A stretch of DNA of 64,000 nt from Spirochaetia bacterium (GCA_965140585.1 OZ223272.1:480001-544000); one strand, 5' to 3'. Counted from the first letter of the stretch, positions 46,505 through 51,533 are shown. A program made the numbers and translations. Notes: generated by a model not told the origin, from the letters alone.

Positions 46505-46533
46505 TTGACCCCTTCATAAATAGAATATAAAAT
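46505..46533 (+). promoter_or_regulatory. sigma70 promoter
   Basis: TTGACC-17-TAAAAT just upstream of the riboswitch. Confidence 0.65.
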
Positions 46534-46543
46534 AATCCCGTTA

Positions 46544-46642
46544 TTCTTCCGAACCCTGATACCTAAAAATCACAATATTTAAGGAATGAGGGTCGAAGGG
46601 CTGTTCCGGAAACAGAACAGCCTCCCGTGTTTGGAAAGGAAG
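46544..46642 (+). promoter_or_regulatory. Moco/Wco (molybdenum/tungsten cofactor) RNA motif
   Basis: TCCGA...CCTAA...GG..., GGCTGTTC-CGGAAACA-GAACAGCC hairpin, then GCCTCCCG...GGAAAGGA that overlaps the RBS; matches the Moco motif hallmarks as I recall them. Confidence 0.78.
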
Positions 46643-46646
46643 TGGG

Positions 46647-48137
46647 ATGCTCAAAAAATCGATTCTTGTTCTCTTATTGATCTCAGCCTCAGCAAGCGTC
46701 AGTGCTCTTGATTTCACCCTGAATGGAAAACTCTGGAAATCTTTTACATCTGAAAACCTTCATACACTCAGCTATCCGGTACCTGCAGAGGACAATAAGG
46801 CTGTTGGAATATCTATCGATGAGCTCTTCCCTCCTATGTATGAAGCATGGAAAATAAATATTTCAATTGACGGCGGCCTGATAGAAAAAAAAGAAAATCA
46901 GCTTGCCGATCTGCTTCCCCGGATTTATCTGACAGAAACAGATTCAGGATGGGCACTTAAAGGTCCCGGATGGACTGTCGAGGATGTTCAGGGCATTGAT
47001 TTACGAGGTGAAAAGCTGATTACCTCAAAGCTTGAAATATGGACAAACTGGGAAGGTGAAGATCTTCTGAAAGAAGAAATCAGCAGATATGCAGAGCTGC
47101 ATAACATCAGCATAAACACGGTTTCCGTTCCCCGGCCCGACTCCAAACTCATTGCCGTTTCAGGCGGAGGAGGAAGCGTTCCCGATATAATAATGGTTCA
47201 ATCGACCTATATGGAAAGTCTTTCGAAATCGGAAAGTATACAGAACCTTGATTACATGTATCCGGAAGGACTTATAAAAGAAGGCCGGGAGGTTTTCAGT
47301 CTTGACGGAAAAACCTGGGCGGTCCCATTTTACTATGATGCCCAGATGATGTTCATCAACACCGGGCTGATGGATACTCCAAAAAACAGCTGGACAACGA
47401 AAGACTATGAAACTTATGCCTCGCAGTTAAAAGCCCGGGGAATAATTCCGTCGGCATGGAACGCCTACTCATCATCTTTTCTTATCCCCTTTCAGATAAG
47501 CTTCGGTAAAAAGACGCTGATTGAACCTGACGGCTCGGTAATCATAAATGATGAGGCAAATATCAGATCACTTAAGTATATTCTTAGCCTGCAGGGGAGG
47601 GGCCTGATGGAGCCGATGGAACGTGATGCCATGACATCGATGTTTGTATCAGGAGATGTTGGTATGATCATAAGCGCCTCATACAGCATTCCCTATTTTG
47701 AAAAGCTTGGCATACCCTTTGAGGCAGTGCCGCTGCCGATCAACTCCGAAACCGGAATCCGGCTTTCAGGCCTTCTTGATTTCAAGGGTTTTGCAGTGCC
47801 TAAAAAAAGCCGCAATACCGCCGCAGCCGTCAGACTGATCGAATATCTCTGCGGAGCAGGCGTTCAGCAGAGATTTACCGCAGCCGTTTCAAAACTTCCC
47901 GCATCAGAAGAAGCACTGAAGCTTGCCGCAGATGCAAACAGATACATGAAGCAACTGACCATCGGATCGGAAACCGGGACAATAATCCCACCGGATCAGG
48001 CTTTTGGAATATATAAGAATACAATGTGGAAAATGCTTAGATTCGCGCTTTCAGGAAGGATGTCTCCTGAAGCTGTCTTGGAACAGACTCAGAAGATTAT
48101 AAATAACAACTTACAGCAAAAAAAGGAGATAGAATGA
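46647..48137 (+). CDS. Sugar-type (CUT1) ABC substrate-binding protein with N-terminal extension
   Basis: Signal peptide; PDII, DGKTWAVP, FVSGDVGMII in the C-terminal ~370 aa. Confidence 0.8.
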   Translation: MLKKSILVLLLISASASVSALDFTLNGKLWKSFTSENLHTLSYPVPAEDNKAVGISIDELFPPMYEAWKINISIDGGLIEKKENQLADLLPRIYLTETDSGWALKGPGWTVEDVQGIDLRGEKLITSKLEIWTNWEGEDLLKEEISRYAELHNISINTVSVPRPDSKLIAVSGGGGSVPDIIMVQSTYMESLSKSESIQNLDYMYPEGLIKEGREVFSLDGKTWAVPFYYDAQMMFINTGLMDTPKNSWTTKDYETYASQLKARGIIPSAWNAYSSSFLIPFQISFGKKTLIEPDGSVIINDEANIRSLKYILSLQGRGLMEPMERDAMTSMFVSGDVGMIISASYSIPYFEKLGIPFEAVPLPINSETGIRLSGLLDFKGFAVPKKSRNTAAAVRLIEYLCGAGVQQRFTAAVSKLPASEEALKLAADANRYMKQLTIGSETGTIIPPDQAFGIYKNTMWKMLRFALSGRMSPEAVLEQTQKIINNNLQQKKEIE

Positions 48138-49531
48138 AACTGACTGTAAAAACATTATTATCAGTTCTGCTGCTTGCCGCACTGCTCATCAGCGGCTGCA
48201 CCACAGCATCACAAAGCCCCTCAGGCCTTGTAATTGAAGAAACAGAAGCTGACGCAGTCGCACATGCGACCCCTAAGGGAACCGGATGGATAATCAGTAT
48301 CAGCGGTGTCAGAGAAGATGAAATTTGGGAATCCAATTTCGAAAAATGGAAGGAAATGGAAGGCTCGGAATACGGTGAATACATGTTCCAGCTTAAAGGT
48401 GAAGATACAAGCTTCATGGCCATCCCTTTTAAAAACATCATTGCCATGGTTGATGATCCTGATGCGACAATGCCCTACGCATTTGATGCTGAACTTTGGA
48501 AATCAGGATATCAAATAACTTTTACAGCTTCCGACGGATATTCAGCTACAATCAACACTGCAGATTTTGCAGTGGAAGATCTCTACATAGCAGATGCAAT
48601 GCGGGGTGAAAAAGTAGCTCCCATGTTGACCGGAAATATTTCAACTCAGTTCTGGGTAAAAGAACTCGCTTCAATTACAGCAGATCTTAAACCGGTTTCA
48701 CTTGCTGAAAACAATTTTGAACTAATCCTTGACATCGGCGAAAAACATGCCGTTAAAACAATCGCAGAGCTTGAAAAGCTTCCCTACTACATTGAGGACA
48801 AGGGGAACTACACCAACAGCTATGACAATAATTTCCAGTATATATGGGGAGGAGTAAAGATTGTCGATCTTATAGAAGAATATGCATCGCTTACACCTGA
48901 AATGACGGTAGTAATCGAGGCAATGGACGGTTATGCCATGACCTACAGTGCTTCGCAGCTTCTGGACAACTCTGACGGCGACTGGATTCTTGCCTTCAAG
49001 GAAAACGGCGAATACATGCCCGAAGATCCCGGTTATATCCGGCTTGTAAAGGTAGGACCCAACAACCCCAATATCACAGGACATGTTTCTGCACGGATGA
49101 TAAAGAAGATCATCATCAAGGATGTAGCATTCAAGGATTTCAGCCTCGATCTTATACAGAACGGCAGGACTGAGGTAATGGACAGACAGACTCTTCAGAG
49201 CGGAGTTACAACTTCACGAACAAAGGTTGCCTTCTTCAATAAAAAGGCCGGTGAGGCTGTGGAATACCTGGGCATTCCCGTATACGTGCTTCTTGAAAGG
49301 TACACCGACTATAAGACTGTAACCGTACAGGCCGCCGACGGATACTCTATTAGTCTCAATGCCGCCGAGCTTGCAGGAAACGATGATGTAATTATTGCAA
49401 TGTTCTACGGCGATGAGAGCGAACTTTCCGAAAGTGAATTCCCGCTCGTTATAGTGTGGGATCAGGATGCAGCCATTGTACCGGCAGGAATCAAGGCGGT
49501 AAGAAACATTTCTGCCCTGATTCTTGAATAA
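48134..49531 (+). CDS. Lipoprotein with three molybdopterin-binding-domain-like repeats
   Basis: Lipobox ISGC; three AxDGY motifs (ASDGY, AMDGY, AADGY), WGGVKIVDL, ILA...NG....PG.IRLV. Confidence 0.7.
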   Translation: MKLTVKTLLSVLLLAALLISGCTTASQSPSGLVIEETEADAVAHATPKGTGWIISISGVREDEIWESNFEKWKEMEGSEYGEYMFQLKGEDTSFMAIPFKNIIAMVDDPDATMPYAFDAELWKSGYQITFTASDGYSATINTADFAVEDLYIADAMRGEKVAPMLTGNISTQFWVKELASITADLKPVSLAENNFELILDIGEKHAVKTIAELEKLPYYIEDKGNYTNSYDNNFQYIWGGVKIVDLIEEYASLTPEMTVVIEAMDGYAMTYSASQLLDNSDGDWILAFKENGEYMPEDPGYIRLVKVGPNNPNITGHVSARMIKKIIIKDVAFKDFSLDLIQNGRTEVMDRQTLQSGVTTSRTKVAFFNKKAGEAVEYLGIPVYVLLERYTDYKTVTVQAADGYSISLNAAELAGNDDVIIAMFYGDESELSESEFPLVIVWDQDAAIVPAGIKAVRNISALILE

Positions 49532-51533
49532 AAACAGCTTATTAAAAAACATATACTACTTTATCCCCGTCCTGCTTCTTACGGCAGCGGCGGGGATTGC
49601 TCCCTTTATTGAAGCCTTTCAGACTTCTTTTTATCATGATATTTACGGGCAGAAAACATTCGCCGGACTCGAAAACTATTTCTTCCTGAGGCAGGACAGC
49701 GGATTCCGGCTAAGTGTAAACATAACAGCGCTATGGTCGATCGGCTCCGCGCTTTTGAGTGTCTTTACCGGTTTTATCCTTGCATCAATGATGACATCGG
49801 TAAAAAAACTTTCAAAATTACTCTACGGGGCATTGCTGATTCCCTGGGGTATTCCAGTTTACATAGCCGTACCGCTCTGGAGGGCGCTTATTCACGGCAA
49901 CGGGGGAAATTCAGTCTTCACGGAACTCTTCGGACTCAGTTTCAACCTGATGATGGATCCGGCTGCGGGTTTTATATCCTGTCTTGCTGTGAACCTCTGG
50001 CTTACACTGCCGTTCACTGTTTTTATAATTCACGGAGCAATAAGCCGCATTCCGGTTACCATGAAAGAAGCCGCTGAAGTTGACGGGGCTGATCGGATAA
50101 CAGTTTCCATGCATGTTATAATGCCTCAGATCAAAAATGTCCTGATCACTATGGGAATACTCAACTTCATCAAGGCATTCAAGGAATTTTCAGTTCCCTT
50201 TCTGATGACAGCCGGCGGCCCGCCGCTGCTCAGCGGTATCACAGACCGGTTTATTATCGGTGCAGTTACAACCCTCGATGTCTTCATATATGATATCTTC
50301 AATACAACTGAGGACATGGGAATTTCATCCGCATACTCAGTGATGACGGCAGGTCTGATTATTTTACTCATTGCGGTGTGGTATATCTCTGGTTCATCAA
50401 AGAAATCAGCAGCATTCCGATTTAGAATACTTTCAGTATCCACAGCCCTTATACAGCTTATATTCTCCGGCCTTTCCGGAGGGCTTCCTGCTCTGGGCTA
50501 CCTCACCGGCCTTATTAACAGAAAACTTTTTTACATTTCAGCATTAATTCATTTCATTTTTATCTGCATCAAAACAGCTCATAACGGATTTCTTTCCGGT
50601 TTTGATCCGGGAATTATCCCGGCTGTCTACACTGCCGTATGGGTAGTACTTCAGCACAGAAGAAATCCTGAAAACCGGAAAACTTCAATACAACCGATAA
50701 TTCGCGGACTCAAACTGCCTGCAGCCGGTTTATCGCTGGCGGCCTCAGGCCTGATCATTGTTTCGTCTGCTGTAATTATTTACCTGCTGCTATGGATGAG
50801 CTTTTCAGGAATCAGTGCCTGCTTTATCGACGGTTTTCTGCCTCCATCGCCGGGTATTGAAAGCTACCGTGAGGCTTTCAGCGAACATAACATTATATAC
50901 TACTTTAAAAACACAATAATTGTTTCAGCCCTTACCGGAGTTCTAACTCCTCTTGTCTGCTTCCCGGCAGCAATGTATCTTAACAGCAGAGGCAAGGTCT
51001 TTACCGGAACAGTTCTTGCAGCCATACAGCTTATAAGTATTGCCGGAGGAATGCATTCCCTTATACCTCTTTATGAGATATTCAGAAAGGCGGGACTTGT
51101 TAATTCCTTCACTCCTCTGATAATAATCGGAACCTATCATGCAGTTCCCGTTGCAATCTTCACAATTACAGCATGGCTTGATCGTATGCCCGATTCTTTC
51201 AGGGATGCAGCTCTGGTGGAAGGAATGAAGCCGTTCGGATATCTCATAAGAGTACTGATGCCGCTGTCAATTCCTGTGATTGTCACTTCGTTTATGGCAG
51301 CCTTTATATCGGCCTGGAATTCTTTCATGGTGCCGCTTATCTTTCTGAATGAGGAACGTCTCTACACCATAAGCATCAAAATATACTCTCTGATAGGAAG
51401 CATTGCATCCGGAACACCTTCCTGGAATATATTTGCAGCGGTATCTGTTCTTAACTGTCTGATTATTGTTTTTATTTTCTCATGGTTTAGAAAACCGGCG
51501 GGAAAAACCGGTATTTCAGAGGTTATGGATTAA
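49524..51533 (+). CDS. Fused two-module carbohydrate-ABC-type permease
   Basis: Two EAA loops (EAAEVDGA; DAALVEGM). Confidence 0.85.
   Translation: MNKNSLLKNIYYFIPVLLLTAAAGIAPFIEAFQTSFYHDIYGQKTFAGLENYFFLRQDSGFRLSVNITALWSIGSALLSVFTGFILASMMTSVKKLSKLLYGALLIPWGIPVYIAVPLWRALIHGNGGNSVFTELFGLSFNLMMDPAAGFISCLAVNLWLTLPFTVFIIHGAISRIPVTMKEAAEVDGADRITVSMHVIMPQIKNVLITMGILNFIKAFKEFSVPFLMTAGGPPLLSGITDRFIIGAVTTLDVFIYDIFNTTEDMGISSAYSVMTAGLIILLIAVWYISGSSKKSAAFRFRILSVSTALIQLIFSGLSGGLPALGYLTGLINRKLFYISALIHFIFICIKTAHNGFLSGFDPGIIPAVYTAVWVVLQHRRNPENRKTSIQPIIRGLKLPAAGLSLAASGLIIVSSAVIIYLLLWMSFSGISACFIDGFLPPSPGIESYREAFSEHNIIYYFKNTIIVSALTGVLTPLVCFPAAMYLNSRGKVFTGTVLAAIQLISIAGGMHSLIPLYEIFRKAGLVNSFTPLIIIGTYHAVPVAIFTITAWLDRMPDSFRDAALVEGMKPFGYLIRVLMPLSIPVIVTSFMAAFISAWNSFMVPLIFLNEERLYTISIKIYSLIGSIASGTPSWNIFAAVSVLNCLIIVFIFSWFRKPAGKTGISEVMD

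Follow-up and report, generated by a model that had tools for sequence, protein, structure and literature searches.

What might be imported by a carbohydrate-type ATP-binding cassette (ABC) system whose genes lie behind a riboswitch of the molybdenum cofactor (Moco) family? The question is raised by a three-gene cassette in a 64-kb stretch of DNA from a Spirochaetia bacterium (the whole stretch is here called the window), whose genome, G000, is 98.5% complete. An initial annotation, made from the sequence, had proposed that the cassette takes up an intact molybdenum or tungsten pterin cofactor, or a precursor of it, with the help of a surface capture protein and a shared ATPase. Our computational analysis supports this interpretation, which neither the nature of the leader nor the protein folds refuted; the binding, transport and regulation described below are predictions. 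On balance, we think it probable that the cassette is a riboswitch-repressed ABC importer that salvages a pyranopterin cofactor, its lipoprotein serving as a periplasmic capture protein. The observations on which this is built are the family to which the RNA belongs, its overlap with the Shine-Dalgarno (SD) sequence and start codon, the protein folds, the gene order, the linkage to the riboswitch and the co-occurrence of genes in the carrier genomes.

The leader is an ordinary member of the Moco RNA motif family, RF01055, of the class that lacks the P3 hairpin. It was matched by cmscan with the Rfam covariance models at 74.6 bits (gathering score 36; E 3.5e-16), over the complete model (positions 1-135), and it is the sole RNA family that these models matched across the window; the P3 positions are deleted and the P1/P2/P4/P5 architecture is retained. 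The SD sequence GGAAG (about 46637-46641) is the 3' strand of P1, and the match extends 10 nt beyond the ATG at 46647, which bears out the Moco-like RNA sequestering the ribosome-binding site that had been annotated. The promoter annotated ahead of the RNA fared less well: a sigma-70-like site is present, but sites resembling promoters are about as frequent in the region (11) as in shuffled sequence (10.0 expected), and its role as the promoter of the cassette is plausible but unproven. According to the available text of Regulski et al. (2008, PMC2408646), P3-less Moco RNAs correlate with tungsten-cofactor metabolism and have been proposed to sense the tungsten cofactor (the 'Tuco' subclass). 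The leader shares with that subclass the full-length match, the SD sequence in the 3' strand of P1, the position as a 5' leader and a genome with tungstoenzymes of the aldehyde:ferredoxin oxidoreductase (AOR) type, G000 having 7 AFOR_N matches and TupA. It differs in what follows, since the genes of the cassette are not oxyanion transporters, biosynthesis genes or cofactor enzymes, but a MalE-type ABC system and a lipoprotein of pterin-binding fold; relatives of the cassette may be among the 176 examples of that paper.

This arrangement is conserved. A scan of species-representative genomes gave 99 confirmed cassette loci, of which 80, almost all titled as spirochaetes, were fetched and form the basis of the locus and carrier-genome counts given here. 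The order binding protein, lipoprotein, fused permease is kept at every locus as far as the sequence extends. When the RF01055 matches from two whole-genome searches were mapped onto the loci, a coding-strand match was found to stop at the start of the binding-protein gene, or over it, in 57 of 63 testable loci, those with at least 250 nt upstream; further riboswitch-linked cassettes are the short-flank loci L034 and L085 and the contig-split loci L096, L107 and L111. The P3-less leader was also found by cmscan in 9 of 9 orthologous loci, and the mapped coordinates were reproduced. Two cassettes lie in metagenome-assembled genomes (MAGs) titled outside Spirochaetota: L076 (Thermotoga sp.), whose riboswitch has the top score of all (87.5 bits), and L021 (Bacteroidales), which is likely mis-binned, as it is nearly identical to the Sphaerochaetaceae locus L045. 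The five Sphaerochaetaceae-type cassettes (L019, L020, L021, L022 and L045) stand in genomes without any RF01055 match, and in four of these five genomes MoaC is present and MoeA_N and TupA are not matched.

The protein that sets this cassette apart is P0002, the lipoprotein encoded by the second gene. It had been annotated as carrying three AxDGY repeats that resemble the molybdopterin-binding fold of sulfite oxidase and MsrP; the sulfite oxidase (SUOX) fold was confirmed in three tandem domains (D1 to D3), but in the short, cysteine-less form of PruR. By hhalign the domains are related to one another (D1-D3 98.8%, E 7e-17; D2-D3 96.1%, E 3e-9; D1-D2 56%), and Pfam Oxidored_molyb (PF00174) matches D2 alone (E 2.6e-11). 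In the predicted model (pLDDT 84.5), comparison by Foldseek and VIA-align of the domains with the PruR structures 7kom, 7rkb, 7kp2 and 7kos gave Z scores of 15.3-16.0 and root-mean-square deviations of 2.5-2.9 Å, with 125-133 residues aligned of 134-146 and Z of 15-16 for D2 and for D3; chicken sulfite oxidase, SorA, SoxC, nitrate reductase and YedY gave Z of 11.8-15.6. The relationship to PruR rests on this fold comparison, because the search of solved-structure sequences with the P0002 profile returned just 7kom, at a marginal E of 0.23. In that weak alignment the AMDGY of D2 falls on the ALNDY of PruR, and the PW position of PruR is occupied by 'tsagn'. Each of the three domains keeps the DGY tyrosine, which varies little or not at all among 33 homologues, with Asp in the place of the PruR Asn.

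PruR is described, in the available text of PMC11194511, as a secreted, cysteine-less, shortened SUOX fold in which the pterin ring is sandwiched by Tyr and Trp and held by a hydrogen bond from Asn, the contacts being N102, Y104 and W160 plus the PW motif. P0002 thus shares with PruR (7kom, 7kp2, 7kos/7kou and 7rkb) a secreted, cysteine-less SUOX-like fold of about 130-145 residues, and the Tyr of the N-x-Y motif aligns with that of DGY. It differs in having three lipid-anchored tandem domains, no PW motif and Asp for Asn, in belonging to Spirochaetota and not to Proteobacteria, and in its operon, which holds ABC genes under a Moco riboswitch instead of a DcpA-type enzyme of cyclic di-GMP metabolism; no DcpA-type gene occurs among the recurrent flanking clusters of the 80 loci.

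Is P0002 an enzyme or a binding protein? Its sole Cys, as had been annotated, is C22 in the lipobox LISGC; a Mo-ligating Cys is absent, and no Cys is invariant among the 33 homologues. Most of the homologues have a Cys after a hydrophobic stretch, as judged by eye (P0053, P0088, P0099 and P0102-P0105 do not), and a twin-arginine motif occurs in 0 of the 33 aligned, although TatC, of the twin-arginine translocation (Tat) system, is encoded in G000. With this Sec/lipoprotein signal, P0002 would therefore be exported unfolded, without a cofactor inserted in the cytoplasm, and from its sequence it looks like a binding protein rather than an enzyme. About 130 homologue clusters were found, almost all in Spirochaetota MAGs, under the titles 'molybdopterin-dependent oxidoreductase' or 'hypothetical protein'.

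The other two genes complete what has the composition of a type I ABC importer, a secreted binding protein and two BPD_transp_1 domains. The three open reading frames (ORFs) overlap as had been annotated, by 4 nt and by 8 nt, the third having a TTG start. In P0001, residues 138-425 match Pfam SBP_bac_8/SBP_bac_1 and no other family, and the AlphaFold2 (AF2) model (pLDDT 92.5) has MalE/GacH-type binding proteins as its top folds (target-normalised TM 0.80-0.85), so that the annotated binding protein of carbohydrate uptake transporter 1 (CUT1) type, with its extra N-terminal domain, stands. The homologue alignment has 26 invariant residues; E136, Y229, D231, W271, W461 and R465 are invariant and presumably correspond to ligand contacts of MalE. 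The oxyanion-binding families PF13531 and PF12849 are not matched by P0001, and the TupA of G000 is a separate gene. The N-terminal domain showed no similarity to the three P0002 domains in profile comparison (probability at most 2.3%), and an Atlas connection of this domain to a cluster containing Oxidored_molyb, with a score of 0.75, is a lead only. P0003 has two BPD_transp_1 stretches, a MalF-like N half followed by a MalG-like C half, and is thus the fused double permease expected; its C half gives a sub-threshold match to NCBIfam ModB (53 bits, cut-off 182.6), and the NCBIfam scores are far under all sugar-specific cut-offs. A predicted complex of P0001 with P0002 reached an ipSAE of 0.56 (best control 0.02), with runs agreeing in at least 77% of contacts and partner pLDDT of at least 83. 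Of 80 solved complexes, 58 reach this mark for ipSAE, 7 of them at 0.60 or less; of 110 mismatched pairs, 2 reach it, both at 0.60 or less. The model thus gives weak support to a contact between the two proteins.

Table 1. Features of the cassette and its leader, with positions counted from the first nucleotide of the window
Feature	Position	Strand	Basis
Sigma-70-like promoter candidate, TTGACC-17 nt-TAAAAT	46505..46533	+	10/12 consensus positions; position inferred
Moco/Tuco riboswitch aptamer (RF01055), P3-less class	46535..46657	+	Covariance-model match; covers SD and ATG
P0001, 496 aa, secreted substrate-binding protein, MalE/CUT1 fold	46647..48137	+	Pfam, NCBIfam, AF2 model, fold comparison
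Extra N-terminal beta-rich domain of P0001 (residues 20-126)	46704..47024	+	AF2 strands 20-123, pLDDT >84
P0002, 465 aa, Sec/SPII lipoprotein, lipobox LISGC (C22), three tandem PruR-like SUOX-fold domains	48134..49531	+	
P0002 D1, residues 47-187, motif SDGY	48272..48694	+	Fold comparison, hhalign
P0002 D2, residues 188-333, motif MDGY	48695..49132	+	Most conserved domain
P0002 D3, residues 334-465, motif ADGY	49133..49528	+	Z 16.0 to 7kom (model residues 336-465)
P0003, 669 aa, fused double ABC permease (MalF-like and MalG-like halves)	49524..51533	+	Pfam, NCBIfam

If the cassette brings in a finished cofactor, some of its carriers might be expected to use molybdenum or tungsten enzymes without making the cofactor themselves, as the initial annotation had anticipated, and this is largely what the carrier genomes hold. 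AFOR_N, the mark of the AOR tungstoenzymes, is found in 78 of the 80 carriers, mostly in several copies, while MoaC is found in 33, MoeA_N in 32 and a TupA homologue (searched with the G000 protein as query) in 25. None of these three genes is found in 43 of the 80, 42 of which have AOR. In five contiguous genomes of this 'none' group, one of them titled a chromosome, the MoaA C-domain and WtpA were each found in 0 of 5, and no ModA reached its cut-off in any of them, G043 having two fragments below threshold at the end of a contig; MoCF_biosynth occurs in one, in a 425-aa ORF that we guess may be CinA, and PF00384 in four. Three further genomes, titled as chromosomes or consisting of a single 3.07-Mb contig (G014, G016 and G039), have MoaC and neither MoeA_N nor TupA. 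On a tree of P0002 (FastTree; 74 of the 80 rows, 6 rows shorter than 380 aa being excluded) the 'none' trait is weakly clustered: it requires 20 changes, of which the starred branches force at least 15, against a shuffled mean of 24.5 and with 21 of 500 shuffles as low. What is robust are the groups of 8, 6, 4 and 3 rows in which every member is 'none', along with the genomes at chromosome level; clades uniform in this respect lie around L042/L049 and L065-L081. The anticipation did not hold for G000, in which MoaA, MoaC, MoeA and TupABC are all present.

The remaining Moco RNAs of these genomes point in the same direction. G000 has six, which precede the cassette itself; an operon of TupABC, two MoeA, MoaA, MoaC, a MOSC protein and MoaB; a ferredoxin and AOR; a NAD-type aldehyde dehydrogenase; and two FecCD-type ABC systems. 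Twenty further sites were fetched from genomes without MoaC, MoeA and TupA: six precede AOR (two of them behind a ferredoxin-like gene with the motif RRDFLK), ten Aldedh, three are the cassette's own leader on another contig, and one precedes nothing recognisable. Biosynthesis genes or tungstate transporters lie behind 0 of these 20 sites, and the cassette is therefore the sole transporter in that regulon, at the sites examined. To judge from their gene content, the cells of the 'none' group thus appear to retain a cofactor sensor although they seem incapable of synthesising the cofactor, and this sensor is placed ahead of the cofactor-using enzymes, a substitute enzyme independent of the cofactor and a single transporter, the cassette.

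Several other members of these regulons deserve mention in their own right. (i) In G000 a Moco RNA (G000:C7:210541-210666, minus strand) lies directly upstream of an Aldedh gene (L090:4103-5551, minus strand), and the same pairing occurs in L095, L098, L099, L100, L103, L104, L105, L106, L108 and L109. It looks like an isozyme switch, by analogy with the B12 riboswitches on B12-independent isozymes: a cofactor-independent aldehyde dehydrogenase would be made when the tungsten cofactor of AOR is scarce. (ii) In L101 (213-3065) and L110 (reverse strand), of genomes G037 and G043, a Moco RNA is followed by a 236-aa 4Fe-4S protein with an N-terminal RRDFLK and then by an AOR of about 707 aa; this twin-arginine-like motif suggests that, in genomes without cofactor synthesis genes, there is an AOR complex which is exported by Tat or associated with the membrane. 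(iii) The two FecCD-type systems of G000, of FecCD/Peripla_BP_2 type and with their own ATPases, follow the Moco RNAs at G000:C1:58481-58603 (L088) and G000:C3:56352-56486 (L089); one of the two includes a 440-aa SBP_bac_11 protein and the second a DUF364/DUF4213 'putative heavy-metal chelation' protein, and no such system lies downstream of any of the 20 sites checked in 'none' genomes. (iv) The second MoeA of the G000 tup-moe-moa operon (L087:3628-5544, G000:C6; 638 aa) is fused to a C-terminal PBP_like domain (PF12727), which may be an oxyanion-binding module on the insertase.

How would such an importer work? The ligand, the hand-over from protein to protein, the ATPase and the direction of regulation are what we infer in the following scheme. 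At low cytoplasmic levels of free cofactor, the P3-less Moco RNA would have no ligand and the SD sequence would be exposed; translation of the binding protein would follow and, by translational coupling, that of the two overlapping genes downstream. P0002, exported unfolded through Sec and lipid-anchored in the periplasm, would capture and probably shield the oxygen-labile cofactor in its three PruR-like domains and hand it to P0001, which would dock on the fused MalFG-like permease P0003, with energy from a MalK/MsmX-type ATPase encoded elsewhere. The imported cofactor would be loaded into the AORs, and a surplus would bind the riboswitch, close P1 over the SD sequence and turn the operon off. 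As cargo we consider the tungsten cofactor, Moco or molybdopterin itself most likely; in clades without MoeA it would have to be the metal-loaded form.

No ATPase gene had been annotated at the locus, and indeed ABC_tran is found in none of the 20 flanking window ORFs scanned, the neighbours being PGI, an AMP-binding enzyme, a DUF5312 protein, arginine-synthesis genes, a TRAP transporter and similar. A single OB_MalK-type ATPase gene lies elsewhere in the genome, at G000:C1:787771, and the idea of a shared ATPase is compatible with this candidate partner. When the 892 flanking ORFs of the 80 loci were clustered, no neighbour gene was conserved in more than 18 loci, so that no conserved ATPase or Moco gene adjoins the cassette. 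In 18 of the 80 loci a 288-aa ABC ATPase (ABC_tran) is encoded about 1 kb upstream, divergently on the opposite strand (for example L081:455-1321, minus strand); this may be synteny among relatives, or it may be the missing ATPase of those lineages.

A number of findings weigh against cofactor salvage: (i) By fold, P0001 is nearest to oligosaccharide binders, with sub-threshold matches to NCBIfam MalE and GanS. A cleft of the short PruR type seems, according to the available text of PMC11194511, not to have room for whole Moco, and P0002 domains have, in our reading of the weak alignment (E 0.23), the same short hairpin. (ii) The riboswitch is missing from 6 of the 63 testable loci, the five Sphaerochaetaceae-type ones and L080. 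(iii) MoaC, MoeA and TupA occur together in 24 of the 80 carriers, and in G000 itself another Moco RNA stands ahead of TupABC, two MoeA, MoaA, MoaC and MoaB; auxotrophs are therefore not the only carriers, and in G000, by its gene content, the cassette would serve salvage and not be the sole source of the cofactor. (iv) MoaC, MoeA and TupA lie in one operon in G000, so that one missing contig could remove all three together. Since near-identical sisters disagree on the 'none' label (L083/L047 and L040/L029) and the label changes 20 times on the tree, some of the absences are probably due to MAG incompleteness or assembly gaps. (v) MoaE (PF02391) was not found in G000 nor in 72 of the 80 carriers, including genomes with MoaA, MoaC, MoeA and TupA, and was detected in 8; Pfam absences in this lineage can therefore mislead. 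(vi) The comparison of AOR-positive genomes, which in itself speaks for salvage (MoaC in 93 of 102 cassette-free controls and 33 of 78 carriers, odds ratio 14), has a Fisher p of 8e-13 that overstates the case, as relatives are non-independent and the groups differ in assembly quality.

The control for this last comparison consisted of 400 sampled Spirochaetota genomes (0 of 400 with the cassette), mostly of high quality and unmatched to the carriers in this respect; a phylum-wide cross-tabulation of cassette, AOR and MoaC was dropped, as the 400-genome sample held no carriers except G000, and it serves as the cassette-free control instead. MoaE, for its part, was dropped as a fourth marker of the pathway and as evidence of auxotrophy, being undetected in 72 carriers and G000 and giving no separation of the groups. 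As it was not found in G000, that genome may not be fully self-sufficient in cofactor synthesis. The same gap has been noted for Thermotoga thermarum. A non-orthologous replacement of molybdopterin synthase is possible, and a small MOSC-domain gene sits in the G000 tup-moe-moa operon.

Three other explanations have to be set beside cofactor import. The cassette might import the metal itself, as tungstate, molybdate, a thio-oxyanion or a metal-chelator complex, and would then be a fourth type of molybdenum and tungsten uptake beside ModABC, TupABC and WtpABC, with the lipoprotein as a periplasmic trap for metal or chelate. Moco RNAs do classically lie upstream of molybdenum and tungsten oxyanion transporters (Regulski 2008, PMC2408646, as far as its available text goes), another Moco RNA of G000 precedes TupABC, the C half of the permease gives the sub-threshold ModB match, and a second metal route would be sensible in the carriers with biosynthesis genes. 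Such a route, however, would be useless to the 43 of 80 carriers without MoaC, MoeA and TupA, the five contiguous ones of which also lack the MoaA C-domain, an above-cut-off ModA and WtpA; P0001 is an SBP_bac_1/8 protein of MalE fold and belongs to neither of the oxyanion-binding families, and the fold of the accessory lipoprotein is pterin-binding, not oxyanion-binding. We therefore regard metal import as quite unlikely. Alternatively, P0002 might be a periplasmic molybdenum or tungsten enzyme of the sulfite oxidase/MsrP family, whose product or substrate is imported by the binding protein and permease, the riboswitch controlling an enzyme that uses the cofactor, as happens with certain Moco RNAs. 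With that family (SorA, SoxC, YedY/MsrP and chicken sulfite oxidase) P0002 shares the fold (Z 11.8-15.6) and, on D2, the Oxidored_molyb match; its database names include 'molybdopterin-dependent oxidoreductase', and P3-less Moco RNAs precede putative sulphite oxidase genes in S. wolfei, according to the available text of Regulski 2008 (PMC2408646). Yet the lipobox Cys is the sole Cys, and hence there is no metal ligand; the domains are of the short PruR size, with a shortened hairpin and without a dimerisation or haem domain, and no haem or MsrQ-like redox-partner gene occurs among the recurrent neighbours. Moreover, the periplasmic members of the sulfite oxidase family are exported folded by Tat, whereas P0002 and its homologues carry the Sec/lipoprotein signal and no twin-arginine motif despite the presence of TatC. 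An enzymatic role is, to our mind, highly improbable.

There is a better case, though still an unlikely one, for the import or sensing of some other compound, such as a neopterin- or monapterin-like pterin or a glycoside, with only an indirect link to molybdenum and tungsten and with the lipoprotein possibly acting as a PruR-like pterin sensor. The nearest solved relatives of P0002 are the PruR proteins, binders of small pterins reported, in the available text of PMC11194511, to have no cleft deep enough for Moco, and P0001 is nearest to oligosaccharide binders. This explanation, however, offers no reason for a Moco/Tuco riboswitch at 57 of 63 loci, and it leaves unexplained why the carriers are enriched for loss of Moco biosynthesis with AOR kept. 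The hallmarks of PruR are absent as well: there is no PW motif and no DcpA-type partner among the recurrent neighbours, and there are three anchored domains where PruR has one free one.

How does the cassette compare with the importers already known? To our knowledge, Moco and its tungsten form are generally held to be too unstable for exchange between cells, and every user is expected to make its own. Coenzyme riboswitches for B12, thiamine pyrophosphate (TPP), flavin mononucleotide (FMN), tetrahydrofolate (THF) and prequeuosine-1 (preQ1) control transporters of their own coenzyme, according to the available text of a RegPrecise survey (PMC3766115), among whose categories, as far as that text gives them, there is no transporter of Moco or the tungsten cofactor. 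The logic of the cassette is that of the B12-BtuFCD, TPP-ThiBPQ, FMN-RibU, THF-FolT and preQ1-QueT systems, in which a coenzyme's own riboswitch represses its importer in prototrophs and auxotrophs alike; it is different in its lipoprotein of pterin-binding fold, which has no counterpart there. With the MalEFGK2-type (CUT1) importers that use a shared MsmX/MalK ATPase it has in common the MalE-fold binding protein, the MalF- and MalG-like halves and the lack of an ATPase in the operon, and it departs from them in the fused permease halves, the added N-terminal domain of the binding protein and the control by a Moco riboswitch. Our full-text search of the literature returned no description of a bacterial importer of Moco or the tungsten cofactor; uptake of Moco was found, in sources available in part, only for the nematode C. 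elegans, and the available part of a 2026 review of bacterial pterin signalling mentions neither 'riboswitch' nor 'ABC transporter'. By this comparison, riboswitch-controlled coenzyme salvage ABC importers are already known, and what would be new here are the substrate class and the accessory protein, both undescribed for such importers. That bacteria have in this cassette their first uptake system for tungsten or molybdenum pyranopterin cofactor in intact form, a lipid-anchored triple pterin-binding protein capturing what other cells release and delivering it to an ABC importer dedicated to it, is a bolder claim that we advance tentatively, being somewhat more inclined to doubt it than to accept it.

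If cofactor import proves true, it would explain the existence of AOR-rich spirochaetes without MoaA, MoaC, MoeA and TupA: whole clades of free-living anaerobic spirochaetes would run several tungstoenzymes after having lost both cofactor biosynthesis and tungstate uptake. The PruR-type pterin-binding fold would gain a role in transport, and, with this addition, a salvage transporter would be under the control of each major coenzyme riboswitch, completing the pattern. The binding and capture proteins would also provide a handle for stabilising or moving the cofactor, of relevance to research on the therapy of Moco deficiency. Moco and the tungsten cofactor would then be exchanged 'vitamins', cross-fed among the inhabitants of anoxic sediments, mats and guts.

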